Below are positions 2 through 19,286 of a stretch of DNA of 20,000 nucleotides, piece by piece. The stretch comes from an uncultured virus (IMG/VR IMGVR_UViG_3300031857_013780). Its lineage: Duplodnaviria; Heunggongvirae; Uroviricota; Caudoviricetes. Both the position numbers and the translations under genes were made by a program. The DNA is taken from the IMG/VR virus record IMGVR_UViG_3300031857_013780, positions 52,390 through 72,389 of that record. One strand, given 5' to 3'. The notes beneath the pieces are model-generated. The model did not search any database. It was not told the DNA's origin and saw only the letters and a program-made list of their open reading frames with translations. How positions within the stretch are numbered: position 1 is the stretch's first letter; each line of letters starts with the position of its first letter.

Positions 2-943
2 CAAGATGGTAGTTACTTAGCCGAGTATTTACTTTCTTTAGGGTATGACGTTTATGGTATAGTAAGAAGAAATTCAACTCCCGAACATCAACAAACAAGA
101 TTAGACCCAATAAAAAACAAATTAAAAATATTTTATGGAGATTTGTTGGACCAAGGAGGGATTGAGCGTTTATTGGACGATATACAACCAGACGAGATAT
201 ATAATATCGCTGCACAATCGCATGTAAGAATTAGTTTTGATATACCTCAATTCACTGTTCAAACAAATTCTTTAGGTGTTTTGAACATTTTGGAAGCATA
301 TAGGAGATCTTGTCCTTCTGCTAAATTTTATCAAGCTAGTTCATCTGAAATGTTTGGTAATTCTGTAGATGATGATGGGTTTCAAAGAGAAACAACCCCT
401 ATGACTCCCGTTTCACCTTATGGTTGCTCAAAAGTATTTGGTTACAATATTGTTAGAAATTACAGGAATGCTTATAAATTACATGCGGTAAATGGAATAT
501 TATTCAATCACGAATCACCAAGGAGAGGATCTAACTTTGTAACAAATAAAGTAGTTAAAGCTGCGGTTAAAATTAAATTAGGTTTACAAGATAAATTAGA
601 ATTGGGTAATATGGACTCATATAGGGATTGGGGACATTCTAAAGATTATGTTAGAGCAATGCATATGATAATCAATAATTATAGTCCCGAAGACTTTGTT
701 GTTTCTACAATGCAAACACATTCGGTACGTGAAATGGTTGATTATGTTTTTACAAAACTAGAATTAGATTACAGAGAATATGTTGTACAAAACCCAAAAC
801 ACATGAGACCAGAAGAACTAAAATATTTAAAGGGAGACTCAACAAAAATAAGAAAAACATTAGGATGGGAACCGGAATATACTTTTGAAATGTTAATGGA
901 TGAAATGGTTGAGTATTGGATGAATCATTATACAAAAAAATAA
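2..943 (+). CDS. gmd: GDP-mannose 4,6-dehydratase (5' end outside window)
   Basis: Frame is open from base 2 (QDGSYLAEYLLSLGYDVYGIVRRNS, the Gmd N-terminal motif). It also has AAQSHV, QASSSEMFG, SPYGCSK (YxxxK), LFNHESPRRG and LGNMDSYRDWGH. Confidence 0.96.
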   Translation, partial: QDGSYLAEYLLSLGYDVYGIVRRNSTPEHQQTRLDPIKNKLKIFYGDLLDQGGIERLLDDIQPDEIYNIAAQSHVRISFDIPQFTVQTNSLGVLNILEAYRRSCPSAKFYQASSSEMFGNSVDDDGFQRETTPMTPVSPYGCSKVFGYNIVRNYRNAYKLHAVNGILFNHESPRRGSNFVTNKVVKAAVKIKLGLQDKLELGNMDSYRDWGHSKDYVRAMHMIINNYSPEDFVVSTMQTHSVREMVDYVFTKLELDYREYVVQNPKHMRPEELKYLKGDSTKIRKTLGWEPEYTFEMLMDEMVEYWMNHYTKK

Positions 944-962
944 ATAATAAATTCAAATAAAA

Positions 963-1886
963 ATGGATAATAAAATTGGTTGGTTAGTTAACGATACTTT
1001 AACGTGTATACCAAACACAAAGACATTTTGGCACGATTTGTTAGAATGGTTCCCTAACTTACAGGATAAATGTAATGGTTACACTGATTTTTCTGTACTT
1101 GCCGAAAAAATAGAATCAATAAAAGATAGACCTGATTATATTATTAGAAATGGAACTTATTTTCGTAAGTTAAATATCGACGTACCCACTTTTTGTTTAA
1201 TTCAAGATACATATAATGACCCGGTACAGACAGAAGTAATAAACACATCAACGTGTGTTGTATTTGCATCTAAACAAACATACAATATCTATAAAGACAG
1301 AATTAATCCAAAAAACGTAAGGATAATTGAACAGTCATCTGATTTTGATTTTTTTAAACCGATTGAAGAACGTCATCCCGATGTTTTACCTAATTCAATA
1401 ATTTTTATTGGTGACTCTTCACATGAAAAAAAAGGGTTTCATAGGGTATTAAATTTAATAGAATTATTACCTGAATTTAATTTTTGTTTAGTAATGAAGG
1501 ATAATACAAGTATAGAGGCAATACCAGAAAATAGTAGGAATAGGGTTCGTATTTTTAATAAGGTTGATAGGGGTACGGTCAGACTTTTAATTAATTCGTC
1601 AGTATGTGCGATATGTACTTCAGGTAATGAGGAAGGGCATTTTGCAGGAATTGAAATTGGGGCGTGTAACATACCTATGGTGTCAAGACCTATGGGTTGT
1701 TACTTAGATAGAAAAGACGATAAGAGTTGGGGTTTAATTTCAAGTGATGAGGATTTCCCTGAGACCATAAGATATGTTGTTAATAATCTTAATTTATTTT
1801 CTCCACGTAAATATTATTCTAAAGATTATACTTTAGATAGTTGTCGTAAAAAATGGACTAATTTAATAAATGAGTTTGTCAAATAA
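963..1886 (+). CDS. GT-B fold glycosyltransferase, GT4/Glycos_transf_1-like
   Basis: IFIG..HEKKG motif and an EX7E motif (EEGHFAGIE) followed by GACNIPMV; lies in the sugar cluster. Confidence 0.75.
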   Translation: MDNKIGWLVNDTLTCIPNTKTFWHDLLEWFPNLQDKCNGYTDFSVLAEKIESIKDRPDYIIRNGTYFRKLNIDVPTFCLIQDTYNDPVQTEVINTSTCVVFASKQTYNIYKDRINPKNVRIIEQSSDFDFFKPIEERHPDVLPNSIIFIGDSSHEKKGFHRVLNLIELLPEFNFCLVMKDNTSIEAIPENSRNRVRIFNKVDRGTVRLLINSSVCAICTSGNEEGHFAGIEIGACNIPMVSRPMGCYLDRKDDKSWGLISSDEDFPETIRYVVNNLNLFSPRKYYSKDYTLDSCRKKWTNLINEFVK

Positions 1887-1895
1887 TTTATTAAT

Positions 1896-2744
1896 ATGAA
1901 ATTTACAGTAGAGGTTTTATCTGGTCTGTGTAATGTTCTTAAATCATTTGTGACAGCATTAAGTATGACAGATGTTGGTAATACTAATATTTTACCTAAA
2001 TATAATAATTGGTTTGACGCAAATTATACTGAAATTTTAGATGACTCTTTAATTTGCCACGGCGATCATGAATTTGGGGAATCTTTTGTTTCTGCTAGAT
2101 TCCTTATTTTGAAATCAGAAGAAGCAGATCAACCAGACTTAATTAATGATGCAAAAAGTTTAGGGGACCACCCAAATATTAGAAACAAATCGTTATCACA
2201 TTTATTTTCAACACACTCCATAGATTGGTTTTATGATAGAAATCTTATATCCGATAAAGTGTATAAAAGAATACAAACAGGAATTAATAGAATCAAATGG
2301 AAAGATGAAGTTTTATCTGAGGTTGGCAGAGTTTCAAAAGATTTTGAATATCCGTTATTAACGGTACAAATACGAACTTGGACACATAGATTTGACCCGC
2401 CTAATTGCACAAGTATACGTGATGGGGTTGTAAGAGATTATAATTTTGAAACGTATAAAAACGCGATTGATGGTTTTCTACAAAATGAGAATCCTCCAAA
2501 AACAATTTTTTTGACTTCAGATTCTGATTCTGTGTTACAAACTTATATTGATTATTTTAAAAATTATAATGTAAACGTAGTAACATATACCCAACCAGAT
2601 AATATTACTCAAATGCAGTACTCCGCAGCAAGCATGTTAATTGGGTCAAAGTGTGATATGTTAGTATGTAATCGTTTGAGTACATTCGCAGAATGTATTT
2701 GGTGGTTTGGTGAATGTAAAGCAAAAACAATACCGTTGTTTTAA
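1896..2744 (+). CDS. Fucosyltransferase-like GT (GT11/GT23/NodZ-type motifs)
   Basis: GLCN (cf. GLGN), VQIRTW (cf. VHIRRGD), IFLTSD and SKCD...STFAECIWW (cf. STFSWW) occur in the order expected for GDP-fucose-dependent transferases; near gmd. Confidence 0.7.
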   Translation: MKFTVEVLSGLCNVLKSFVTALSMTDVGNTNILPKYNNWFDANYTEILDDSLICHGDHEFGESFVSARFLILKSEEADQPDLINDAKSLGDHPNIRNKSLSHLFSTHSIDWFYDRNLISDKVYKRIQTGINRIKWKDEVLSEVGRVSKDFEYPLLTVQIRTWTHRFDPPNCTSIRDGVVRDYNFETYKNAIDGFLQNENPPKTIFLTSDSDSVLQTYIDYFKNYNVNVVTYTQPDNITQMQYSAASMLIGSKCDMLVCNRLSTFAECIWWFGECKAKTIPLF

Positions 2745-2768
2745 AAAATAAATTAAAAAAAATATATT

Positions 2769-3296
2769 ATGGAAGATAAGTTAGGTTACCCCGGGTTTAA
2801 ACACAACCATTCGGATTTTATTGCAGAACTAGTAAAACAAATAAATTGTAAAACATACTTAGAATTAGGTGTGTACGATGGTACCACAATGTCCTTAGTT
2901 TATCCACATGTAAAAAAATTAATTGGGGTCGATATTAAAGATGTTAGGAATTTTAAAGGGGGCGATTTTTACTTAGAAAGCACCGACAGTTTTTTTTCCC
3001 ATTTCAATGAAATTGTAGATGTTGTCTTTATTGATGCCGATCACAATTTCGAATCAGTAAAAAAAGATTTCGAAAATTCTATAAAGTTATTAAACAAATT
3101 CGGCATGATAATTTTACATGACACTGACCCAATGGAAGAAATGTACTTGAATCCTAATTATTGTGGTGACTCATATAAAATGGATGAATGGATTAGAGAA
3201 AACTATACAGATTTGGATATTATGACACTACCTTTAACACAAGCGGGTTTAACAATTGTAAAAAGAAAATCCGATAAAAGAATTAATAATTTTTAA
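2769..3296 (+). CDS. Class I SAM-dependent methyltransferase (Methyltransf_24-like), probably sugar O-methylation
   Basis: YLELGVYDG, VFIDADH and IILHDT motifs. Confidence 0.85.
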   Translation: MEDKLGYPGFKHNHSDFIAELVKQINCKTYLELGVYDGTTMSLVYPHVKKLIGVDIKDVRNFKGGDFYLESTDSFFSHFNEIVDVVFIDADHNFESVKKDFENSIKLLNKFGMIILHDTDPMEEMYLNPNYCGDSYKMDEWIRENYTDLDIMTLPLTQAGLTIVKRKSDKRINNF

Positions 3297-4259
3297 ATGA
3301 AAAAAGAAAAGGTATTAGTAGTAGGAGGATCGGGTTACATTGGCGGTTTAACCTGTGATTATTTAATAAGAGACGGTTTCGATGTTACTGTTTTTGATAA
3401 TTTATTGTATGAGAATAGATTTTTAAAAGATATTAGTTTTATACATGGAGATATCAGAGATACTGAAAAAATTTATGAGGTCTCAAAAGATTTTGACGTA
3501 ATAGTTTTGATGGCAGCTTTGGTTGGTGATCCTGCATGTAGTGTTGACCCTACCTTAACCGAAGAAATCAATTTTAAATCCATAAAAAATTTTTGTGACG
3601 TAGTTTTACCAAATAAACATTTAGTGTTCATGTCAACCTGTTCTGTTTATGGCGCACAAGAAGGTCTTTTAAATGAAGAGAGCCCCACTAACCCACTGTC
3701 TTCTTACGCTTCAACAAAACTAGCTGCCGAAAAATATATTTTAGATAAGGGCGGAACCGTATTTAGGTTAGGTACTGTTTTTGGTTTAGGGGATACATAC
3801 TCAAGGTTAAGAATGGATTTAGTTGTTAACGTGCTGACAATGAAAGCAGTAAAAGAAAATGAGATAACAATAAATGGTGGAGAACAATGGAGACCAATCA
3901 TCGCAGTAAAAGATATTGCAGAATATGTTACAGAAGCATGTAAAGAAAAATATAGTGGTGTATTTGTTTTAGCAAAAGAAAATGTTATAATTAGAGAGTT
4001 AGGTGAAAAAGTTGCAAAACTAATACCAGGGACTAAAATAAACTATACAGAAATTTCTTTTCAAGATGCGAGAAATTATAGAGTTGATAACACAAAATCT
4101 TTGGTGACTTTTAAATACAAACCACAAGTAACTGTAGAAGATGAAGTAAAAAGAATGTTAGAGATGTTTAAAGAAAATAGGGTAAAAAACCCAGAAGATA
4201 AAGTTTACCACAATGGTGCTTATTTAAAAAATAAAAAAGAAAAAAACGAAGTTATTTAA
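3297..4259 (+). CDS. NAD-dependent nucleotide-sugar epimerase/dehydratase (extended SDR)
   Basis: GGSGYIG, GDIRD, STCSVYG, YASTK (YxxxK); ATG directly follows the upstream TAA. Confidence 0.9.
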   Translation: MKKEKVLVVGGSGYIGGLTCDYLIRDGFDVTVFDNLLYENRFLKDISFIHGDIRDTEKIYEVSKDFDVIVLMAALVGDPACSVDPTLTEEINFKSIKNFCDVVLPNKHLVFMSTCSVYGAQEGLLNEESPTNPLSSYASTKLAAEKYILDKGGTVFRLGTVFGLGDTYSRLRMDLVVNVLTMKAVKENEITINGGEQWRPIIAVKDIAEYVTEACKEKYSGVFVLAKENVIIRELGEKVAKLIPGTKINYTEISFQDARNYRVDNTKSLVTFKYKPQVTVEDEVKRMLEMFKENRVKNPEDKVYHNGAYLKNKKEKNEVI

Positions 4260-4675
4260 TGGAAACAAAAATATTAAATGGTGGGTTATCGGTAGACGAT
4301 AGAGGTTCGGTTAGTTTTGTAAATGATTTTAACTTTAACGGAGTAAAAAGATTTTACCAAGTTGAAAATCACAGAAGGGGGTTCATAAGGGCATGGCACG
4401 GACACAAAAATGAAGGTAAATACGTATATGTGACAAGTGGTTCGGCATTGATTGGTGTAGTAGATATGGAAACTGAAGAAATAAAAAAGTTTGTATTAAG
4501 TAGTAAAACACCAAAAATACTATGGATACCACCAGGTAATTATAATGGGTTTAAATCATTAGAAGAAAATACAAAAATAATATTTTTTTCAACATCAACA
4601 TTAGATGAAAGTTTAGGTGACGATATTAGACAAGAACACGACAAGTGGGATATATGGAATGAAGAATATAGATAA
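4259..4675 (+). CDS. RmlC-like cupin (dTDP-4-dehydrorhamnose 3,5-epimerase family)
   Basis: DDRG, RAWHGH and WIPPG.YNGF cupin motifs; TAATG overlap with the upstream gene. Confidence 0.85.
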   Translation: METKILNGGLSVDDRGSVSFVNDFNFNGVKRFYQVENHRRGFIRAWHGHKNEGKYVYVTSGSALIGVVDMETEEIKKFVLSSKTPKILWIPPGNYNGFKSLEENTKIIFFSTSTLDESLGDDIRQEHDKWDIWNEEYR

Positions 4676-4692
4676 AATATAAAATATAAAAT

Positions 4693-5517
4693 ATGAAAAT
4701 TTTTGTTATTGGAAGTACTGGAATGTTAGGGAAATACGTGTCTACGTATTTGAATGATTATTATGAAGTGGTTGAAATTAATAGAAAAGATATAGATGCG
4801 TCTTTAATTAAAGAGTCTGAATTAAAGGCAAGGTTTCTACATTTAAAAATTAATGAGGGCGACGTAGTAATTAACTGTGCCGGCACAATAAAACCAAGAG
4901 TAGACCAATTAGGTGATTTAAATGCGGTGTTAGTAAACTCAGTATTCCCAAGAATTTTAGCGAATGTATGTGACTATTACAAAGTAAAAATGATCCATCC
5001 AACAACTGACTGTGTATATTCAGGTAACAAAGGTAGTTATTCTGAAAATGATAATTATGACGTTTATGATGTATATGGAATGTCTAAAGCACTTGGAGAA
5101 CCAAAAAATTGTACAGTTATAAGAACATCGATTATAGGTGAAGAAGTAAATCAAGGCAGATCGCTTATAGAATGGGTTAAGTCTGAAAAAAATAAAACAG
5201 TTAATGGGTTTACTAATCATTTTTGGAATGGTGTAACTTGTCTAGAATTTGCAAAAATTTGTAAAAAAATGATTGATGAAAATTTATTTTGGAATGGTAC
5301 AAAACATTTACATTCAAATACGTTAAATAAAAAGGAATTAGTTGAATTAATAAGTAAATCATTTGAACTTAACGTTACTGTGGTTGAAAAACAAACTGAA
5401 AAAACTTGTGATAGAAGTTTGTCTACAATATATGATGATATAAACAAATTTGATATACCTACATTAAAAGATCAACTTAACGAGTTAAAGGATTTTTCAA
5501 TCAAACTTTATAAATAA
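4693..5517 (+). CDS. rmlD: RmlD-like dTDP-4-dehydrorhamnose reductase
   Basis: GSTGMLG, VINCAG, TTDCVYSG, YGMSK and RTSIIG; adjacent to the RmlC-like gene. Exact substrate is uncertain. Confidence 0.8.
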   Translation: MKIFVIGSTGMLGKYVSTYLNDYYEVVEINRKDIDASLIKESELKARFLHLKINEGDVVINCAGTIKPRVDQLGDLNAVLVNSVFPRILANVCDYYKVKMIHPTTDCVYSGNKGSYSENDNYDVYDVYGMSKALGEPKNCTVIRTSIIGEEVNQGRSLIEWVKSEKNKTVNGFTNHFWNGVTCLEFAKICKKMIDENLFWNGTKHLHSNTLNKKELVELISKSFELNVTVVEKQTEKTCDRSLSTIYDDINKFDIPTLKDQLNELKDFSIKLYK

Positions 5518-5522
5518 AAACT

Positions 5523-6254
5523 ATGACAAGAAAAAAACAACCACAAACCGAAGAACAAGAATCCAAACCTTTTTCAAAAAAAGACTTTATAAATTCAATA
5601 GTAAAGAAAAAACAAAAAAATAAGTTTTTAACTGAAAGTCAAGAACATTATTATAACCTCCTAAGAAACAATCAAATCACAATTTGTTCGGGACCAGCAG
5701 GTGTTGGTAAATCCTACATCGCAATGAAAGCGGCGGTTGATTTATTAATGGACCCATCAAATGCATATGAAAAATTGGTTATTGTTAGGCCGGCAGTAGA
5801 AGCTGAAGAAAAACTTGGTTCATTACCTGGTAACTTAGAAGAAAAATTAGACCCTTACATTTTTCCATCTTATTATCTATTAAATAAAATTATAGGTAAG
5901 GAGGCAAGAGAAAAATTAAAAGATGCCGAAATTATTGAAGTATTTGCTTTAGCATACATGAGAGGTATGAATATAGATAATACAATTTTAATATTTGAAG
6001 AAGCTCAAAACTCAAGCCCAAATCAAATGAAATTACTATTGACAAGAATAGGATTCAATAGTAAATTCTTTATATCAGGAGATATTGAACAAACTGACCG
6101 TTATAGGGACAAAAAACAATCAGGTCTTTATGACGCAATTAAAAAGTTTAATGATGTTCACGATATTGGTGTGTTTGAGTTTGGTGATGGAGATGTGGTA
6201 AGAAACCCTCTTATAAGTAAGTTATTAAAAAAATATGAAGAGAATAGGGATTGA
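5523..6254 (+). CDS. phoH: PhoH-family ATPase
   Basis: Walker A GPAGVGKS, RPAVE..EKLG.LPG...EKLDPY, LAYMRG, EEAQN, SGD..Q.D and VVRNPLI. Confidence 0.95.
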   Translation: MTRKKQPQTEEQESKPFSKKDFINSIVKKKQKNKFLTESQEHYYNLLRNNQITICSGPAGVGKSYIAMKAAVDLLMDPSNAYEKLVIVRPAVEAEEKLGSLPGNLEEKLDPYIFPSYYLLNKIIGKEAREKLKDAEIIEVFALAYMRGMNIDNTILIFEEAQNSSPNQMKLLLTRIGFNSKFFISGDIEQTDRYRDKKQSGLYDAIKKFNDVHDIGVFEFGDGDVVRNPLISKLLKKYEENRD

Positions 6255-6885
6255 AATTAATGGTGTGTTAAGGGATACTATTGGCAAATTTACTCAGCTA
6301 TATGAAAAACATATGATTGAAGAAAAAAACGATGATAGTAAAACTTTTGAGTTAGATATGTCCGGAAATACCGAAGAAGTAATTTCTCCTGAAGAATTTG
6401 AATATAAAATTTTAAGTGACGTAACTTCCCTTAATTTAATGGAACACTTTAAATTTAATGGTGAAGATGAGTTATATTCTTTTATGTATGAAGATTTTGC
6501 AATGCAAATATTTGGTCACGCAGGATCCACTGAAACATTTACTTTTAACGATCTTAATGAAATATATTTAAATTATAGAGATAATAATGAATTACTTATT
6601 GTGTCAGATGAAATGGGCAAATCAAAACCAGCATCTTTATTTTTTCTTTCAAAGTTTGGGTGTTTGTTAGAAAAAATAAAATTTTATTCAAATGTTACAA
6701 TTAATTCAATGTGGAATGAAGTAGACATTTTACTTACGTCCAACCCTCAACTAATATTAGAAAAACCAAAAGATAAAATCGTAGTTAAATTTAATACGAA
6801 TTATAATAAAAATGTCAGTTGTGAATATGAAATAAACACATTGAAAGAATTTGACGAAACATTAAAAAAATTAAATATATGTTAG
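6235..6885 (+). CDS. HAD/5'(3')-deoxyribonucleotidase-like protein with degenerate catalytic motifs
   Basis: N-terminal RIGIEINGVLRD (cf. IGIDIDGVLRD); C-terminal DILLTSNP...KFNTNYN resembles the NT5C-like tail. Confidence 0.6.
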   Translation: MKRIGIEINGVLRDTIGKFTQLYEKHMIEEKNDDSKTFELDMSGNTEEVISPEEFEYKILSDVTSLNLMEHFKFNGEDELYSFMYEDFAMQIFGHAGSTETFTFNDLNEIYLNYRDNNELLIVSDEMGKSKPASLFFLSKFGCLLEKIKFYSNVTINSMWNEVDILLTSNPQLILEKPKDKIVVKFNTNYNKNVSCEYEINTLKEFDETLKKLNIC

Positions 6886-7166
6886 AATTTTTAGGAGAAA
6901 ACTATTTCTTGGACATTAATGAACTAGAAAAGCAAGTAAGTTACGAAAAATCTGTTTTACCTTTAACCACGGGCGATACAGAATCTCCAGAACAACAAAT
7001 AAGTGTAACAAGATTTGAAACCTTTAAAAGTTTGATAGAGGTTTTACTTACAGAACGTGAAGAGTTAGATGAAGATTTAGGTATACATGGGGCAAAAAAC
7101 TTAACAATCCCATTTAAAATCGCCTTCAACACTTTATTAATAAATAAAATACTTAAAAAGTTTTAA
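6879..7166 (+). CDS. Hypothetical protein (95 aa)
   Basis: Fills the gap exactly, overlaps the upstream stop, and has normal composition. Confidence 0.8.
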   Translation: MLEFLGENYFLDINELEKQVSYEKSVLPLTTGDTESPEQQISVTRFETFKSLIEVLLTEREELDEDLGIHGAKNLTIPFKIAFNTLLINKILKKF

Positions 7167-7169
7167 AAA

Positions 7170-8234
7170 ATGGAATTAGAAAAAATTGAAAAATTAGAAA
7201 AATCTGTCAACAGTTTAAAAAACAAGTTGTCAAGAATTTATTTTTTAGTGCAGGACACTAAAGGCAACCCAAAAGCTTCTGTTAAATACATTTATGACTT
7301 GGCTTTGATTCTTTCTAAGAAAGGTTATAACAGTATTATTATTCATGAAAGTCAAGATTATAAAGGAGTTTCTTCTTGGTTGAGTGAGGAGTATATGGAA
7401 TTACCTCATCAAACAATTGATGGTCAAAATTTGCAAATATCACCTGAAGATTTTATTATTATTCCTGAAATTTATGGTCATGTAATGGAGCAATTAAAAA
7501 ACTTTACTTGTGGTAAAATAGTTTTATGTCAGTCGTATGATTATATGTTAGAAACGTTAGCACCTGGAACTTCTTGGGCTAATTTTGGTTTTATAAAATG
7601 TATTACTACTAGTGAAAATCAAAAAAAATACATAACAGATATTTTTAGAAATGTTAGTGTGGATATTATTGAGCCAACAATTTCATCTATTTTTAATAAA
7701 AAAGAAAGACCCGCTAACCCTATTATTTCAATACACTCCAGAGAACAAAGAGATACTGCAAAAATTATAAAAACATTTTATTTAAAATATCCTCAGTTTA
7801 GATGGTTAACGTTTAGAGATATGAGAGGAATTAGTCAAAATGATTTTTCTAAATTCTTAAAAGAAAGTTATCTTTCTGTTTGGGTTGATGATATATCTTC
7901 TTTTGGTACTTTCCCTTTAGAATCTATGTCTTCAGGTACTCCTGTAATTGGTAAAGTTCCTTATTTACCTCACGAGTGGATGACTGAAAATAACGGTATT
8001 TGGACAAATAATACAAACGATATTGTTGATTATATTGCAAACTTTACGCAAAATTGGTTAGAAGATAATATTGCGGATAATCTTTACGAAGAAATTAAAA
8101 ATACTTCAGATAAATTTAAAGATATTGAAAAATTTGAAGGAGAGGTTGTTAAACTATTTGAAAAATATTTTGAGACCAGATTAGGAATATTTGAAGAACA
8201 ATTAGAAAAAATAAAATTAAACGTAGAAAATTAA
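7170..8234 (+). CDS. GT-B fold glycosyltransferase (GT4-like)
   Basis: SFGTFPLESMSSGTPVIG matches EGFGLPxLEAMxxGxPVI; N-terminal IYF...YIYDLA.IL and IIIPE. Confidence 0.75.
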   Translation: MELEKIEKLEKSVNSLKNKLSRIYFLVQDTKGNPKASVKYIYDLALILSKKGYNSIIIHESQDYKGVSSWLSEEYMELPHQTIDGQNLQISPEDFIIIPEIYGHVMEQLKNFTCGKIVLCQSYDYMLETLAPGTSWANFGFIKCITTSENQKKYITDIFRNVSVDIIEPTISSIFNKKERPANPIISIHSREQRDTAKIIKTFYLKYPQFRWLTFRDMRGISQNDFSKFLKESYLSVWVDDISSFGTFPLESMSSGTPVIGKVPYLPHEWMTENNGIWTNNTNDIVDYIANFTQNWLEDNIADNLYEEIKNTSDKFKDIEKFEGEVVKLFEKYFETRLGIFEEQLEKIKLNVEN

Positions 8235-8239
8235 TTAAT

Positions 8240-9043
8240 ATGGAAAAATTCGATGTATCGGTAATATTACCACTATCAAGCTCAAAAGTTAGAGGGTTTG
8301 ATGAATTGTTAGAAAGATCAATAAAATCTTTAAAAAATCAGTCATTACCAATAAATGAATTAATTATTGTCCATTCAACAGATGAATCATTAATCAGCCA
8401 TTTATCAAATTTTGATTTTGAAGAGTTACCTGTAAGGTTAGTAGAAAATAAAGGATCTTTTGATTTTGGAACACAAGTTAATTTGGGGGTAAACGAATCA
8501 AATAGTAAATGGGTTTCTATTTTAGAGTTTGATGATGAATACTCGTCAATCTGGTTTAAGAATGTAAATGATTATGAAAAATCTTTTCCTGAAGTAGATG
8601 TATTTTTACCTTTGGTTGTTGACACAGATGAAAAGGGTGTTTTTGCTGGATTTACAAATGAAGCAACATTCGCCGTAAGTATGAATAGTGAGTTAGGATA
8701 TTTAACAAATGAACTATTGTTAAATTATCAAAATTTTCAAACAAGTGGAATGGTTGTTAAAAAAGAAAAGTTCTTAGAGAATGGAGGATTTAAACCATCA
8801 ATAAAATTAACTTTTGTTTATGAACTTTTATTAAGAATGACATATAATTCTAATAAGATATTAACAATTCCTAGAATTGGTTACAAACATACAAATATGA
8901 GAGAAGGTTCATTATTTTGGAGCTACAAATATGGTGAGGAAAAAATCTCCGACAATGAGGTTAGTTTTTGGTTAGAAACCGCAAAAAAAGAACATTTCTT
9001 TACTACAGATAGAAATATAAAGTATGTTGAAGAAAATGTTTAA
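8240..9043 (+). CDS. GT-A fold glycosyltransferase family 2-like
   Basis: VSVILP, SLKNQS, ELIIV, NLGV...WVSILEFDD and YELLLR follow the GT2 motif order. Confidence 0.8.
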   Translation: MEKFDVSVILPLSSSKVRGFDELLERSIKSLKNQSLPINELIIVHSTDESLISHLSNFDFEELPVRLVENKGSFDFGTQVNLGVNESNSKWVSILEFDDEYSSIWFKNVNDYEKSFPEVDVFLPLVVDTDEKGVFAGFTNEATFAVSMNSELGYLTNELLLNYQNFQTSGMVVKKEKFLENGGFKPSIKLTFVYELLLRMTYNSNKILTIPRIGYKHTNMREGSLFWSYKYGEEKISDNEVSFWLETAKKEHFFTTDRNIKYVEENV

Positions 9044-9774
9044 TGTTAGTTAATGATGAAAACAAAGAATTAAAAAAGAAAAAGGCGAATAAAAATAATT
9101 ATTTTGATATTCGCGAAGAAGAGGCAGTTATTAACTATATTAATAGTGAAGACCAAAGAGAAAAAGAGTTTATATATAACAATTTTTTAAGAGATCCTCT
9201 TGATAAGATGATAGATTCTATTATTAGAAGATATAAATTATACAGAAAAGATATGGATTATAAAGATCTTCACACAGATACCCATTCTTTTCTTATGACA
9301 AAAGTAGATAAGTTTAAGCCAGATAAGAATAAGAAGGCTTATTCTTATTTTGGTACCATATGTAAAAATTATTTAATGGGTCAAATACAAAAAGATCAAA
9401 GGGAAATGAATAGAAAAATTTCTTATGAAGACATTTCTACAAGTTTGGAAAATAGACCTGATTTAATATATTATATAGAAAACGAAGAGATTGACGCAGA
9501 AAAAATAATTGATGTATTTTTACAAGACTTGAAAACATATATTCAGGATATGAAATTAAACGACTCGGAAATGAAATTAGGTCAATCATTAATAGAGTTG
9601 TTTAACAACTACGGAAACATTTTTATAGGTAACGACAATAATAAGTTTAATAAAAATATAATACTTTTATCTTTACGTGAAATGACTAATTTATCCACAA
9701 AAGAGATTAGATTATATCTTAAAAAATATAAGACTCTTTATCTGACTACTTTAGAAAAGATAAAAAAGGATTGA
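9043..9774 (+). CDS. Phage sigma factor, T4 gp55-like (late transcription)
   Basis: Basic N-terminus with NNYF, then KFKPDKNKKAYSYFGTICKNYL resembling sigma region 2 of gp55-type factors (FD..K...AY.T..C.N.F); sits directly before probable virion genes. Confidence 0.65.
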   Translation: MLVNDENKELKKKKANKNNYFDIREEEAVINYINSEDQREKEFIYNNFLRDPLDKMIDSIIRRYKLYRKDMDYKDLHTDTHSFLMTKVDKFKPDKNKKAYSYFGTICKNYLMGQIQKDQREMNRKISYEDISTSLENRPDLIYYIENEEIDAEKIIDVFLQDLKTYIQDMKLNDSEMKLGQSLIELFNNYGNIFIGNDNNKFNKNIILLSLREMTNLSTKEIRLYLKKYKTLYLTTLEKIKKD

Positions 9775-13987: not shown

Positions 13988-13997
13988 TATTTATATA
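13988..13997 (+). promoter_or_regulatory. Candidate late promoter motif TATTTATATA
   Basis: In the 22-nt intergenic gap before ATG 14009; identical to 9791-9800. Confidence 0.45.
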
Positions 13998-14008
13998 TAA
14001 AACGTTAT

Positions 14009-15469
14009 ATGTCTATTCATAAATCTTATTTTGATAAGTCTAATACAATTATATATAATTCTTACACTAATACTGCGAGAAATCCTATTGTTGAATTATT
14101 TTTTGGTAGGGTAGATAACCTATCGGTACCAATAGGTTATAGTAGGTATATTTTTAATATAGATTTAACAAATTTACAGACAAAAATATCTGAAGGAATT
14201 ATATCAACAGGGTGTACTGGATTTTCTAATATTACCCACAAATTAAAAATGACTAACACATCATTCTTTGATAAAGAGTTACTTAACGATAAGACATCTC
14301 AAGGTAGAAGAAGGGCAACTTCTTTTGATTTAATATTATTTAGAATACCCCAAAACCAACAGTGGGATATGGGTGTAGGATATGATTATTATGATTTTGG
14401 AATCACTAATTTAAATGATAAATCTTTTTCTGATAGATCGTCAAATTGGTTTCAAAGAACGACTTTGAGTGGTTGGTCAACTAATGGAATATACGATAAT
14501 ACAAATTCTTCTTCGGGTACTTCAGTAAACTATTCAGCATTAACAATCATAGATACCCAACATTTTGAGTTAGGTAATGAGGATATTGAATTTGATATGA
14601 CAAATGAAATAAACTCAAGATTGAGTGGAGGAACGACGGGAGTTACTGGTTATGGTATCGCATATCTACCTCAGATTGAAAATATTTCCGGTATGACAGA
14701 AAACTATTTTGTTGGGTTTTTCTCTCCTTATACTCAAACTTTCTATGAACCTTATTTAGAGACAACATACGATGATTTAATCTTAGATGATAGAAATAAT
14801 TTTTATGATTCGTTCAATAATAAACTTTATTTATATGTTTATGAAAACGGAACCCCAATAAATTTAGATTCAAACCCAACTGTTGATATTTTAAATTTGG
14901 ACGGTGATCCTGTCGTTGGTTTTACATCTCTAACCACATGTTTGGTAACAAAAGGGGTTTATAAAGTAGATATAAATGGATTAACTTCTGATAGTACTCC
15001 TTGTTTATTTACTGATGTTTGGAAAAATTTAGTAATTGGTGGTAGTTCTTTAGATAATATAGAAAATGAGTTTGCGGTTTTATCTAAAACTAACAAATAT
15101 AATATTGGTACTAAAACAGAAAGTCCTAAATTATTTGGGTTTTCTTTTGATGGGATTAAACAAAATGAAAAGGTATTTAATACGGACGTTAGGAAAGTTA
15201 ATGTGACAATAAAACAGGCGTATTCTACTGCAACGGTATTAAAAGGAGTAAAGGCCTACTATAGAATATATGTTAGAGAGGGTGCAAATACAGAAGTACA
15301 AGTTCAAGATTGGACAGAAATTAATAGAACTACAGATGGTTATTATTTTGTTTTCGATACAAGAGATAAAATACCTAATGAATATTTTATAGATATTAAA
15401 GTAGTTTCAGATAGAAACATAGATACTTATAAAAGAGAATTACAATTTCAGATTGTAAATAAATTATAA
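14009..15469 (+). CDS. Probable virion structural protein with a DNRLRE-like beta domain plus Ig-like C-terminal part
   Basis: SRYIFNIDL, spaced Trp residues, EFDMT, GYGI and FFS...PYLETTY resemble the DNRLRE pattern; beta-rich; adjacent to the spike gene. Confidence 0.55.
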   Translation: MSIHKSYFDKSNTIIYNSYTNTARNPIVELFFGRVDNLSVPIGYSRYIFNIDLTNLQTKISEGIISTGCTGFSNITHKLKMTNTSFFDKELLNDKTSQGRRRATSFDLILFRIPQNQQWDMGVGYDYYDFGITNLNDKSFSDRSSNWFQRTTLSGWSTNGIYDNTNSSSGTSVNYSALTIIDTQHFELGNEDIEFDMTNEINSRLSGGTTGVTGYGIAYLPQIENISGMTENYFVGFFSPYTQTFYEPYLETTYDDLILDDRNNFYDSFNNKLYLYVYENGTPINLDSNPTVDILNLDGDPVVGFTSLTTCLVTKGVYKVDINGLTSDSTPCLFTDVWKNLVIGGSSLDNIENEFAVLSKTNKYNIGTKTESPKLFGFSFDGIKQNEKVFNTDVRKVNVTIKQAYSTATVLKGVKAYYRIYVREGANTEVQVQDWTEINRTTDGYYFVFDTRDKIPNEYFIDIKVVSDRNIDTYKRELQFQIVNKL

Positions 15470-15481
15470 TTTAAATAAAAA

Positions 15482-15661
15482 ATGGGACAAGTAAGCGCGA
15501 ACACAGAAGTTACTTTTTGTGAACAAATTTGTGACGGGTCTGGAGGAACAACCGTTGTTGAGGTTTCAACACCACACCCAACGTATTCAGATTTAACTGG
15601 AGGTACAGTAGTACAATTAAATATGGTTACTCTTGGGGGACCAAACGGATTAAACTCATAA
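15482..15661 (+). CDS. Small hypothetical protein (59 aa), absent from the ORF track
   Basis: Hand translation: MGQVSANTEVTFCEQICDGSGGTTVVEVSTPHPTYSDLTGGTVVQLNMVTLGGPNGLNS. A-rich start context; fills the gap and ends 3 nt before ATG 15665. Confidence 0.8.
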   Translation: MGQVSANTEVTFCEQICDGSGGTTVVEVSTPHPTYSDLTGGTVVQLNMVTLGGPNGLNS

Positions 15662-15664
15662 ATT

Positions 15665-16126
15665 ATGAATATCAATCATATTATACGTAAAGTATTAAAA
15701 GAAGAAGAAAAGAAACATTCAAGTAGATACATGTTTTTTTCAAATTTAGAACAAATGAGAAGACAATGTGATATGTTGTTAGAATTAGATGAATCAATGT
15801 TAGAAGAAATATTAGATAATGGTCATGATTGGGCACAAGATCACATTTCTGAAGCAAAGAACAATATGGATCAAGTTTTTGATTTTTTAATGAATGAAAC
15901 CAAAAAACATGGTATGCAAATGTCAATGAATATTGATGATAAAGATATGGTTGAAGAGGGTCGTAAAAAAACGGGAACAAAACTTTGTGCTAGAGGTTTA
16001 GCATCGGCTAAAGCTAAATATGACGTATTTCCAAGTGCTTATAGTAATGGTCATGGTGTACAAGTTTGTAAAGGAAAAATTAAAGGACTGGATGGTAAAA
16101 AAAGGTGCTCACCACCATACTGTTAA
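15665..16126 (+). CDS. Modular phage protein: leader, acidic helical domain, basic Cys-containing PSAYxNG domain
   Basis: MNINHIIRKVLKEE leader; C-terminal LCARG...KYDVFPSAYSNG...C...C...C. Confidence 0.8.
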   Translation: MNINHIIRKVLKEEEKKHSSRYMFFSNLEQMRRQCDMLLELDESMLEEILDNGHDWAQDHISEAKNNMDQVFDFLMNETKKHGMQMSMNIDDKDMVEEGRKKTGTKLCARGLASAKAKYDVFPSAYSNGHGVQVCKGKIKGLDGKKRCSPPYC

Positions 16127-16833
16127 AGACCTGATAAAATATTTCTAACTATAATATTTAAAGACTCTTTTTGAGTATTTTTTGTTTTATATGAAGTCAT
16201 GACAGGTTTTTGTCCTTTTCCTGATTGTGGGTCATTTTTTTCCGCACTTCTTTTTTGTTGGCACGCAGATCTTTTTTGTGAATCAGACATTTTGCCAGCA
16301 ACACCAGCGGCTCTACATTTAGGATAAGCACCTTTACTAGTGTCGCTTCTACCACAAGGTGGGTGTTTACCATCAACTTTTCTACAAATATCCACCCAAG
16401 GTCCTTTTGGTTGTGACGATCCTTTAGGTTTTTTCTTTTTTCCAAACCAAACCGCCAAATCTTCATTAATTGGTATTGCATTTAATTCAATCCACTCATT
16501 AACAGGAACAACTTTTTTACCTTTACCTGGTGTTTGATTTATTATACCACCATCTTCATCATTTGGTTGAGGATGTTTTTTATTATATAATGAAATTCTT
16601 TTTGATTTTGCTTCTAATTTTTTTCTGTCTTTCTTATGTGAATCTAAGGATCCGTCATAACTATCGTACTCTAATTCTGCATTATAAAACTTAGATACTT
16701 TGTGTTTGAATGGACCTAAAAACGAGTCGCCCCAATCAATTTCTCCCATAGTTAAAGGTCCGTTATAAGATCCTGCATATCGACTAGAATCGGCCTCTTT
16801 TATTATTTTTTTTACAATATTATTAATGTTCAT
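16123..16833 (-). CDS. Modular basic phage protein with a WF..WVD..PCGR..YPKC domain
   Basis: MNINNIVKKIIKEA leader; ATGA overlap with the upstream gene; stop overlaps the convergent gene's stop (TTAA 16123-16126). Confidence 0.8.
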   Translation of the reverse strand: MNINNIVKKIIKEADSSRYAGSYNGPLTMGEIDWGDSFLGPFKHKVSKFYNAELEYDSYDGSLDSHKKDRKKLEAKSKRISLYNKKHPQPNDEDGGIINQTPGKGKKVVPVNEWIELNAIPINEDLAVWFGKKKKPKGSSQPKGPWVDICRKVDGKHPPCGRSDTSKGAYPKCRAAGVAGKMSDSQKRSACQQKRSAEKNDPQSGKGQKPVMTSYKTKNTQKESLNIIVRNILSGL

Positions 16834-17294
16834 ATATTCTTTCTACTATCTAATAAATATCTGTATACTGTTAAATGTGTGTGATAAAATACTAAAATTA
16901 GTATCCCCCAAGTTTCTGCCCAAAATAATCCATCAAATAAAAAAAGTGCGGATAGTAAAAATATAAAAAAATAGTACCTGAATTTTTTAATACTCCATAA
17001 CGATACCGCAGAAAAAATAAAAAATAATACCGCAAAAATATTATGTAAAACAAAATGGTCAGTCACTGAAAATGAAGTTAAAAGTAAAAGAAGTATTGCC
17101 GGTACTCTCCATTTTGGCATTTTAAAAAAGAAAAAACTAACAAGAGCGTTTGTGATTATAAAAAGTGGTTGTAGCGGTGTGTTCCAAGACTGTGATATTG
17201 CGTGGTCGTCGCCATATAGGAAATAAATGATGAAAGGTTGTAAGACCGCCAAAAAGGACGCAAACAACCTTTCAAACATATCCCATCTATTCAT
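16830..17294 (-). CDS. Polytopic membrane protein (about 5-6 hydrophobic segments; loosely DUF998-like)
   Basis: Alternating hydrophobic stretches, AIS and H...A.LFF motifs; start abuts the upstream stop. Confidence 0.75.
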   Translation of the reverse strand: MNRWDMFERLFASFLAVLQPFIIYFLYGDDHAISQSWNTPLQPLFIITNALVSFFFFKMPKWRVPAILLLLLTSFSVTDHFVLHNIFAVLFFIFSAVSLWSIKKFRYYFFIFLLSALFLFDGLFWAETWGILILVFYHTHLTVYRYLLDSRKNI

Positions 17295-19286
17295 TTACCT
17301 AATCATTTTTCTAATACTTCCGTCGTCATAAATTTCAATAACAAGTCCCTTTGTGTAATCAGGATTCACTTCTTGACCCATTAAATTTATATATTTTACA
17401 ATTTTCTTTTCAGTAATTGTTTTTGTTACTAATATTGGTCCGTAAGTTTTAAACACACCATCTATATCAAATTGTTGTAATCTATAATATGTCACAGGAT
17501 TTAAGTTATAATCAATATAAGAGTATTTAATTTCTTCTGTTGAATTTCCTGCCGCATATTTTGTTGTGATTTTTCTCCAATTCTCACCATCTGTACTTGA
17601 TTCTAAATCAAAATGACTTGAGTTATTTTCACTTGCAGTTGTCCATTTAACAACATTCCACTGAGGGTATCCAAATGATTCAAATTGTGTTAGTTCTACA
17701 GGTAATGAAATAGGGTTAGATATTCTTATTGTATATTCTTCTATTTCTCCATAACCATAACCTAACGAATAATACGCATCAATATCAGGTGTACTATTCC
17801 ATACAGATAATACTCTCATTAAAACGTCACCTGTTACAGCATCTGAAGGTATTGTTACAAGTTGTGATGTAGAATTTGCCGTTGCTTTTAATAAAACATT
17901 TTCTGTTGTTTGTAAGACACCGTCACCATTCCAATCAATCCAAGCAGCATAACCTTGACCTGGATTTAAAGTGTTTGCTGCAGTTACGGATAAATTATAA
18001 GGTTCACCTTTTGTAACATTTGCAATTATTGAGGTGTAATCCGAATAAGCATCTCCATCATTAGTTGTTGTATTATTTATATCATTAAAAGTGACATTTG
18101 TTATGTGATCTCCGTCAACAATTCCTGATGAATATGGTGGAGCACTTTTAAGTGTTATATTTACAATATTAGAAACACCAGACGGACAAGTACCGTCTTT
18201 TGATGTTGTTCTAAAATATACGTTTGCTTCTTGTACGTTTAATTGAATGTTGTACGGATTTGCGGGGTTTGTAACACTACCGTCTACTGTTGTAAAATTA
18301 TCAAATGACCACTCGATTTTTGTTATTGACCCACCATTTCCGGTAGTCGTTAAAGAAACCCCATCATTAACTGTTGTTAAACTTTTATTAGTACTTAATG
18401 TTCCTCCATTTGTTGGTGTTGTACATACCGTAACAGATGTTACAGTTGCTTGGAAACCAACCCTAATACCACTAATATCTGAAGTAAACCTTAATGTAAG
18501 TTGTCCTGAAGCATTTTCAGCAGTAATAGTTGCAGGTAATGATGTGCCATTTAATGTTGCAAGTAAGGGAGAACTTGTATTTGGCCCATCATAAACATAT
18601 AAGAAATCATAAACCGCCTCTACGTTGAATGATGAAAAATCTAATTGTAATTTTTTTGTATTGTCAGATGGTGTTAAAGTTACTGTTTGATCTAAATTAT
18701 TATTGTATGTGTCAGTAGGTCCACCGGCATCAGTTATTGTATATGTAAGTGTAGAGGTTAAAGTCTGACTACAATTCCCTAAAAATGGTATTAGTGTATT
18801 TTGATTTGTTACAGTTGATGTAATACCTAAATCATCAACATATCTTTCGTGTGCACCTGATGCTCTACCATCTAAAAGTCTTATAAAAACATTTGTAAGA
18901 CCTAAAGCACCAATATTTAAAGTATATTGTTGATATGTTGTTGTTGGTGCTGTTACTGTACCCCTTGTTGTCCATGTTGTTCCGTCAGGTGATGTTTGAA
19001 CATTTAAAGTCCAAGCAGTTGAGTTACTACTTCTTCTATACCAAAAAGAAAGAACCCCAGGATTTGCAATTTGTGGTGTTCTAATCCAATCTCCGGTACC
19101 ATTAAATCCTGCGGCATAATTACCGGTTCTAGTTGGTGAAGTCGATGCAAGTATGGAATTTACACCCCATGTACCTCCTTGTGTTGTTAATGTACTTGTA
19201 AAACTTTCGTAAATTAAATATTGATTACATTGTGATTTTACCCCCAAAGAAATTAGAAGTGTTAGAATAAAAAACAGTTTTTTCAT
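17295..19286 (-). CDS. Secreted CUB + GEVED + Ig-like protein with T9SS-type C-terminal sorting tail
   Basis: Signal peptide MKKLFFILTLLISLGVKS|Q; CUB (Y.NN...LDFSSFNVE..YDFLYVYDG...LRFTSD); GEVED (AWIDWNGDG...GEIEEY); LPVEL..F/WTTASE.N/YYRL.Q.D.DG block; tail YINLMGQEV...IEIYDDG..RK. Confidence 0.85.
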   Translation of the reverse strand: MKKLFFILTLLISLGVKSQCNQYLIYESFTSTLTTQGGTWGVNSILASTSPTRTGNYAAGFNGTGDWIRTPQIANPGVLSFWYRRSSNSTAWTLNVQTSPDGTTWTTRGTVTAPTTTYQQYTLNIGALGLTNVFIRLLDGRASGAHERYVDDLGITSTVTNQNTLIPFLGNCSQTLTSTLTYTITDAGGPTDTYNNNLDQTVTLTPSDNTKKLQLDFSSFNVEAVYDFLYVYDGPNTSSPLLATLNGTSLPATITAENASGQLTLRFTSDISGIRVGFQATVTSVTVCTTPTNGGTLSTNKSLTTVNDGVSLTTTGNGGSITKIEWSFDNFTTVDGSVTNPANPYNIQLNVQEANVYFRTTSKDGTCPSGVSNIVNITLKSAPPYSSGIVDGDHITNVTFNDINNTTTNDGDAYSDYTSIIANVTKGEPYNLSVTAANTLNPGQGYAAWIDWNGDGVLQTTENVLLKATANSTSQLVTIPSDAVTGDVLMRVLSVWNSTPDIDAYYSLGYGYGEIEEYTIRISNPISLPVELTQFESFGYPQWNVVKWTTASENNSSHFDLESSTDGENWRKITTKYAAGNSTEEIKYSYIDYNLNPVTYYRLQQFDIDGVFKTYGPILVTKTITEKKIVKYINLMGQEVNPDYTKGLVIEIYDDGSIRKMIR

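Follow-up and report, generated by a model that had tools for sequence, protein, structure and literature searches.

The locus described here raises the question of why sequence motifs that in other viruses belong to one small protein should be encoded in two genes on opposite strands, and of what the two products do. The window, that is, the whole stretch of 20,000 nucleotides analysed, is the final 20 kb of a 72,389-base IMG/VR virus record with 30% G+C and an estimated completeness of 24%. An original prediction, made from the letters alone, had placed at 15950..16470 the two halves of a split domain, a PSAY-type half ending a plus-strand gene and a WF/WVD/PCGR/YPKC half in a minus-strand gene. 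Both open reading frames (ORFs) and every motif it named are present there, in the following two genes:

15665-16126, plus strand: gene A, encoding a 153-aa precursor composed of a leader, a conserved acidic middle module (module X), and the DUF5872 N-module (module A)
16123-16833, minus strand: gene B, encoding a 236-aa precursor composed of a leader, a variable region, the DUF5872 C-module (module B), and a short tail

The two genes are convergent, with a 4-nt overlap of their stop codons. The C-terminal region of the gene A product carries AKAKYDVFPSAYSNG, with Cys108, 135, 148, and 153 within the last 55 residues and a net charge of +11 (a fifth residue, Cys35, lies upstream of module A), and the gene B product contains LAVWF..WVDICR..PCGR..YPKCR, with Cys150, 160, 173, and 191 in residues 125-223 and a net charge of +16; the four Cys and the strongly basic character ascribed to each segment are thus borne out. 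Both halves occur in 148 of the 160 IMG/VR loci retrieved with either half (some contigs having been retrieved by both the A and the B query), always convergently and never fused, so that their pairing is not a matter of chance. The remaining 12 loci lack a tblastn partner; two of them have a Tyr-type A detected by HMM search, and ten end 3-1024 bases past the match. Although the location of halves of one domain on opposite strands is unusual and might suggest that a recent gene break, inversion, or assembly artefact has split one gene into remnants, the identical convergent layout recurs in the 148 loci, with intergenic gaps of -4 to 3226 bp, and genes A and B are each intact with their own leader, B also having its own promoter-like motif. 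The recurrence refutes such an origin, to which we assign a negligible probability.

With regard to the identity of the two segments, the Pfam model of DUF5872 (PF19197; length, 116 positions; gathering cut-off, 27.5 bits) gave no match to either window protein or module (E<=1 or E<=10), nor any in the window's own contig, and because they lie below the gathering cut-off, window A and B are referred to as DUF5872 homologues and not as Pfam members. Their relation to the family emerges from hhalign comparison with an alignment of 11 natural fusions, in which window A aligns over columns 6-40 at a probability of 96.2 (E 2.5e-9), and window B does so over columns 59-129 at 97.8 (E 7.4e-13). The two segments therefore hit non-overlapping N- and C-parts of the same targets, as the original prediction had anticipated, and at the level of profile alignment modules A and B are shown to be the N- and C-parts of DUF5872:

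15959..16123, plus strand: module A (residues 99-153), DUF5872 N-part, Cys-type, assigned by hhalign; predicted helical hairpin with a PSAY turn (secondary structure taken from the fusion model described below)
16165..16461, minus strand: module B (residues 125-223), DUF5872 C-part with WF..WVD..CG..YPKC, assigned by hhalign, ending at a second Glu

Homologues elsewhere agree with this assignment, the B homologue of the Prochlorococcus phage P-SCSP2 aligning with PF19197 positions 55-112 of 116 (5e-14) and 57/74 A rows and 49/74 B rows matching PF19197 at E<=0.1. The gene A product also matches phrog_27331 (E 1.7e-11, residues 104-147) and the gene B product phrog_23735 (E 2.4e-7), with 3449 homologues of gene B at E<=0.001. 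Longer B homologues (358-410 aa) were considered as fusions and rejected, since they represent leader repeats or C-terminal extensions; PSAY was found in one of the 121 proteins, namely, the window's A itself.

The fused form named in the original prediction, with PSAY preceding WF, proved to be real. A DNA pattern of SAY followed by WFxExWV gave at least 120 matches in IMG/VR, and those listed comprise 11 single ORFs and 109 separate-gene pairs; of nine natural fusions scanned, eight score above the PF19197 cut-off, with alignments that span positions 1-113 and 1-115 of 116 in two cases. There are also Cys-type fusions, L227 and, in the cultured Flavobacterium phage immuto_2-6A, gp187; both score lower than the Pfam cut-off. 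The fusion profile matches 5148 clusters (50% identity) at E<=0.001, and the best 150 of these, which are fusions by construction, are ordered A-B in 86, B-A in 63, and otherwise in one, with linkers of 0-105 residues that are <=25 residues long in 133/150, the query itself selecting fusions. Modules A and B are also found as adjacent tandem genes in the pelagiphages HTVC023P, 027P, and 106P, as genes between the scaffold and capsid genes of P-SCSP2, where two small genes separate them, and 42 kb apart in cyanophage Sf-CH8. Hence, the notion of a split domain holds insofar as two genes carry the N- and C-parts of DUF5872, but separate genes are the commonest state among the matches listed (109/120) and fusions occur in both orders, so that DUF5872 is best seen as a two-module unit present in one of several arrangements and not as the result of a rare fission. 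The proteins with which the window modules align, at their N- and C-parts, extend over the entire PF19197 model; in contrast to one polypeptide of about 116 positions, the window has two opposite-strand genes, each module lying within a longer precursor. In A, a Cys pair takes the position of a Tyr pair, and in B, an insertion replaces WFxExW. The ESM Atlas contains clusters with DUF5872 on 14% and 32% of their members, and a piece of the cyanophage S-SM1 matches 386 records, nearly all of them cyanophages. As a separate observation, a Tyr/Trp-type A of other phages replaces the Cys-type A in L013, L026, L027, and L028, within the same clade and at the same gene position, which points to either an exchange of modules or the persistence of an older form.

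The most informative feature of the locus, absent from the original prediction, is the presence of leaders and of Glu sites at the module edges beside head genes:

15665..15706, plus strand: leader of gene A (residues 1-14, ending L-K-E-E), a candidate capsid-targeting propeptide
15728..15895, plus strand: acidic middle module X (residues 22-77), present in 78/96 unique A ORFs
15956..15958, plus strand: Glu98 (V-E-E followed by G), predicted prohead-protease cut before module A; Glu immediately before the module in 92/93 unique ORFs of relatives
16795..16833, minus strand: leader of gene B (residues 1-13, ending I-K-E), with a putative leader function; leader motif in 63/104 unique B ORFs
16462..16464, minus strand: Glu124 (I-N-E followed by D), predicted prohead-protease cut before module B; Glu immediately before the module in 104/104 unique B ORFs
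16126..16164, minus strand: C-terminal tail of gene B (residues 224-236), resembling by eye the N-terminal leaders

The leader motif [ILV]xx[ILVA][ILV]xE is found in the first 35 aa of 82/96 unique A ORFs, as against 6/71 own-contig ORFs. Ahead of the modules, the precursors differ greatly in length and sequence, and yet the border Glu is nearly constant; a Glu also follows module B within <=10 residues in 86/104 ORFs, the remaining 18 of which end there. At P3, Met (68/93) or V/I/L (24/93) is found before A, and L/I/V (100/104; L/I in 92/104) before B. In T4, gp21 cuts after L/I-X-E (PMC9026906) and removes capsid targeting sequences of 10 residues (PMC9026906, PMC9958956). The start of the predicted mature part in the window has a site of this type in B (I-N-E) and V-E-E in A, the module A border being in general a looser match to the T4 motif because its P3 is mostly Met. 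Compared by layout and motifs with the T4 internal proteins IPI-III and Alt, the window shares leaders that end hydrophobic-x-Glu, a gp21-family protease in the head module of its relatives, a small basic product (predicted), and Glu sites that border B on either side, a feature reported for Alt. It differs in that Met is common at P3 before A and that the propeptides are long (98 and 124 residues), nearer to those of SPN3US, for which removal of propeptides of up to 254 residues, after A-X-E, has been described (PMC10052503).

Further comparisons are consistent with cutting at these borders. In the 109 separate-gene pairs, B has its start codon 2-13 codons ahead of the same Leu, with Glu at that place in 0/109, and the predicted start of module B is within a few residues of the starts of stand-alone B proteins in other phages, so that the predicted cut would yield a piece that other phages encode directly. 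Moreover, [LIVM]xE occurs inside the A core in 0/23 clusters with a Glu border before B versus 91/113 without it (best 150 clusters, 14 skipped), and in the alignments internal cut sites number 0 in the 20 clade rows, whereas the 54 other rows contain 28 in A and 9 in B, all of these counts, like those of the border Glu, being of kin and not of independent events, so that the p-value overstates the case. The genome encoding the Glu-bordered fusion L227 has an S77 protease, and none of four genomes with unbordered fusions (38-90% complete) shows one.

We lean, by a modest degree, toward the reading that A and B are late head-cargo precursors from which the prohead protease frees basic, DNA-associated peptides with within-chain disulfides. 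In the predicted mechanism, a T4-like jumbo phage would make A and B late in infection as cargo proteins of the head interior, and the N-terminal leader would bring each precursor into the prohead core, where a gp21-type prohead protease would cut after the border Glu to give the 55-residue module A and the 99-residue module B. The freed basic modules, probably stapled by within-chain Cys pairs, would remain on the DNA packaged in the head and neutralise or organise it, and they may exit with the DNA on infection; these last steps are suggested by charge and location. A and B probably act together as one unit.

The head-gene context comes from relatives, because the window's own contig ends before the head block; no head genes were found in it before the contig end, and at least three other genes lie upstream of B. 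A major capsid gene is situated upstream of B on the same strand in 147/159 loci, at a median distance of 329 bp, and the capsid protein of the relatives matches gp23 (E 1e-23). Peptidase_S77 is present in 4/4 relatives searched, 4-9 kb from B. Four long relatives have, in order, terminase, portal, bS21 (on the reverse strand), prohead protease, scaffold, and major capsid protein, followed by gene B, with terminase, portal, bS21, and protease confirmed by Pfam in one of the four. A terminase-portal-bS21(reverse)-protease-capsid layout is described in a preprint by Chen et al. (bioRxiv 10.1101/2021.10.11.463225) for bS21 jumbo phages predicted to infect freshwater Bacteroidetes; the window's close relatives have the same head block, whereas the window's contig stops before it. 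The relatives of the window are classed as bS21-type T4-like jumbo phages. Upstream of B, the window itself encodes a membrane protein, a 663-aa protein with CUB and GEVED domains and an apparent signal peptide (17295-19286, minus strand), and a subtilase fragment cut by the contig end (19498-19989, minus strand). The CUB/GEVED and subtilase genes occupy the place where relatives have the nearby capsid gene, and their products look like secreted Bacteroidetes-type cargo.

A heptanucleotide that may point to late expression of both genes is found at the following positions:

16853..16859, minus strand: TATTTAT upstream of gene B, its candidate late promoter
13988..13994, plus strand: TATTTAT upstream of the 486-aa gene heading the run 14009-15469, 15482-15661, gene A

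TATTTAT occurs within 60 nt upstream of B in 76/93 unique regions, compared with a chance expectation of about 0.018 per window, and precedes 16/71 own-contig ORFs, many of them structural-looking and one of them the gene that heads A's run. It stands directly before A in only 6/83 cases, and gene A is presumably transcribed from the copy at 13988..13994. From its placement, we infer that TATTTAT is a late promoter; scans for sigma-70 promoters and terminators gave chance-level results. A sigma-factor-like protein encoded at 9043-9774 (phrog_234 late sigma factor, E 0.013; Sigma70_r2, E 0.0064) is a candidate for reading the motif. In one metatranscriptome with 0.06 of words present, a search at 80% likeness gave sparse coverage, namely, a few 150-nt contigs, two of which lie free of differences inside gene A at a depth of 2-3. 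Among other genes preceded by TATTTAT, G000:C1:29168-29884 encodes a protein with an N-terminal run of [LI]NE motifs that we take to be superoxide dismutase-like, and the product of G000:C1:38453-39196 presumably has a DUF3721-like start; both are possible additional capsid cargo. Another locus (L294:4792-7866, G004) has a possible cargo array of four unrelated ORFs with similar Glu-ending leaders, located between the capsid gene and gene B.

Published virion proteomics provide a link to the particle through cyanophage polyproteins. S-SM1 gp115 contains B (iE 1.5e-10) and A (4.3e-11). It belongs to the cyanomyophage cluster T4-GC119, whose S-BM3, S-B43, and S-SM1 members have B ahead of A; an S-B68 protein labelled GC0119 has this order too, and Syn9 gp114 also carries both motifs. 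T4-GC119 is given as a structural protein with 13 peptide counts for the whole polyprotein in Table S8 of Sullivan et al. 2010 (PMC3037559), in which, to judge from other rows of the table, it was detected in S-SM1, is lacking in S-PM2, and went undetected in Syn9; the peptides may come from other modules of the polyprotein, for example, DUF6321. S-SCSM1 ORF29 holds both modules and is a "virion protein" by its GenBank label; 45 proteins of S-SCSM1 are reported as detected by mass spectrometry (PMC9602691), and the region of its genome searched at 85-134 kb gave no module. These cyanomyophage polyproteins (S-SM1 gp115, Syn9 gp114, S-SCSM1 ORF29, and S-BM3 gp185) resemble the window in that B and A are Glu-bordered and belong to T4-like phages, being reported or labelled as virion proteins, but they differ in being single polypeptides in B-A order, with DUF6321 and other modules, encoded beside terminase genes.

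The fusion partners bear on what the modules may do inside the head. In the 94 of the best 150 clusters that were scanned, the domains joined to DUF5872 are portal (4), prohead protease (3), DUF6321 (13), DUF3721 (4), ART-PolyVal (3, one below cut-off), topoisomerase IB (3), and InPase (2). The portal and protease fusions, together with the location of the P-SCSP2 genes between scaffold and capsid genes, might indicate structural parts of the head interior, or handles for assembly that attach to the capsid wall, portal, or scaffold, with charge being secondary. However, the modules accompany unrelated head-assembly systems, are also present in giant viruses, and have a patchy distribution among related phages, making such a role quite improbable in our judgment. 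The ART-PolyVal, topoisomerase IB, and InPase fusions could instead be expected if the released unit were an injected effector like T4 IPI, acting early on a host protein or on nucleic acid of the host or phage rather than packing DNA; the T4 internal proteins are described as small, tag-cleaved, and injected (PMC9958956, PMC9026906), and PSAY and the aromatic residues are invariant in the modules, beyond the needs of charge alone. Against this stands the occurrence of the unit in phages of Pelagibacter, Roseobacter, cyanobacteria, and Flavobacterium and in algal giant viruses, hosts so diverse that a single host protein target is hard to reconcile with it, and the T4 internal proteins are said to be poorly conserved (PMC9026906). 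We therefore consider an effector role improbable as well, and return to the reading of A and B as DNA-associated head cargo.

Structural models were compared with regard to the predicted association of the two products. In the AlphaFold2 model of the natural A-B fusion L217 (pLDDT 86.9, pTM 0.70), module A forms a helical hairpin, and module B combines a beta hairpin with three helices, one of them short; largely the same elements are seen in the natural B-A fusion P0148 (pLDDT 76.0, pTM 0.39), in which, because of the low pTM, one module is not confidently placed on the other. The evidence of the models for a fixed A-B interface is accordingly mixed (pTM 0.70 versus 0.39), and such an interface is plausible; for direct contact between A and B, the chances appear about evenly balanced. 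Both modules might instead be packaged and cut free without binding each other, as independent basic peptides of a common cargo kit (DUF6321, DUF3721, and others) that are linked by timing and destination. This would agree with the freedom of order and spacing among the best 150 clusters, with the company of DUF6321 in 13/94 clusters, and with the B-A model, the pTM of which is 0.39 as a whole while each module folds locally. It agrees less well with the short A-B distance (<=25 residues in 133/150, in a set selected for fusions), with the treatment of both by Pfam as one 116-position unit, with their remaining neighbours even on opposite strands, and with the pTM of 0.70 of the A-B model, and we regard it as unlikely, though deserving of real weight. 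In searches of the PDB, the fusion model gave no fold match at E<=0.001, with a best VIA-align Z of 4.0 confined to the helical hairpin, and the sequence gave no match; these results speak neither for a known fold nor for a novel one. BFVD gave 17 structural matches at E<=0.001, all viral proteins, including a DUF5872 protein of Chrysochromulina ericina virus.

The eight Cys residues had been proposed to stabilise the unit through metal or disulfides. They are spaced by 27, 13, and 5 in A and by 10, 13, and 18 in B, and no CxxC/CxxH pair, the pattern sought for zinc fingers, is present in window A or B. The A Cys at -15/+12 are both present in 53, both absent in 208, and single in one of 262 segments, the A tail pair is both present in 72 and both absent in two (n=74), and the extra pair of B is both present in 152 and both absent in 202 (n=354), a paired-Cys test that rests on few independent evolutionary events. 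Both core Cys of B are absent from L186 and L218. Since Cys are gained or lost in pairs inside one chain, the sequence variation is suggestive of four disulfides, all within chains, as a better fit than an inter-chain metal site. The presence of four Cys in each module would also suit a metal site or cross-links shared between the A and B chains, but the coming and going of pairs within one chain, the combination of a four-Cys B with a Tyr-type A in L013, L026, and L027, and the lack of a CxxC motif make this very improbable. The disulfide part of the proposal is thus retained, and a metal site shared between the chains is disfavored.

The loading-and-cutting mechanism itself is already known from T4, and DUF5872 is already in Pfam, where it has no assigned function; what the present analysis adds is a census of fusions in both orders, the contrast in site avoidance, the pairing of the cysteines, and a connection to virion proteomics already published. 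A search of the openly accessible literature found DUF5872 only as a row of an annotation table, with no functional study of its modules, and did not find DUF6321. The modules are widespread: the fusion profile matches 5148 clusters, and they are present in cultured, abundant marine phages (pelagiphages, Roseobacter phages, and cyanophages) and in giant algal viruses. If the cargo reading is true, DUF5872 gains a place (the head interior) and a processing rule (Glu borders with internal sites avoided), direct tests become open in the cultured phages S-SM1, P-SSM2, HTVC023P, and immuto_2-6A, and the findings would bear on the neutralisation and organisation of packed DNA in aquatic viruses. In its widest form, which we put forward tentatively and hold to be rather doubtful as a whole, DUF5872 would be a two-subunit, disulfide-stapled DNA-binding core protein with a fold unmatched in the PDB, serving protamine- or histone-like packing in varied tailed phages and giant viruses, and delivered as free mini-genes, as fusions in either order, or as protease-released cargo with the cut motif kept at the edges and purged inside.

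Several minor observations concern related proteins and the rest of the window. Module X has weak look-alikes elsewhere (iE about 0.1; phrog_13574, E 0.055) and, by BLASTP and HMM, weak similarity to one segment of P0244 and P0241. In P0005, P0101, P0110, and P0111, a unit of ~110 residues precedes module B and is duplicated in some relatives, each copy starting after Glu. P0161, P0176, and P0215 carry DUF5872, in B-A order, N-terminally fused to a topoisomerase IB catalytic core. In another fusion group (P0146, P0143, P0149, and P0178), the borders are E-K-S or K-S instead of xE, which suggests a Lys-based cutting code, and P0146 itself includes an HK97-type S78 protease. Finally, window positions 143-9043 hold a long run of genes that, as read from their translations, are sugar-nucleotide-enzyme-like and glycosyltransferase-like, with a PhoH-like gene; the run continues upstream in the contig, and similar clusters of sugar-nucleotide/glycosyltransferase-type genes are mentioned in the bS21-phage paper (bioRxiv 10.1101/2021.10.11.463225).
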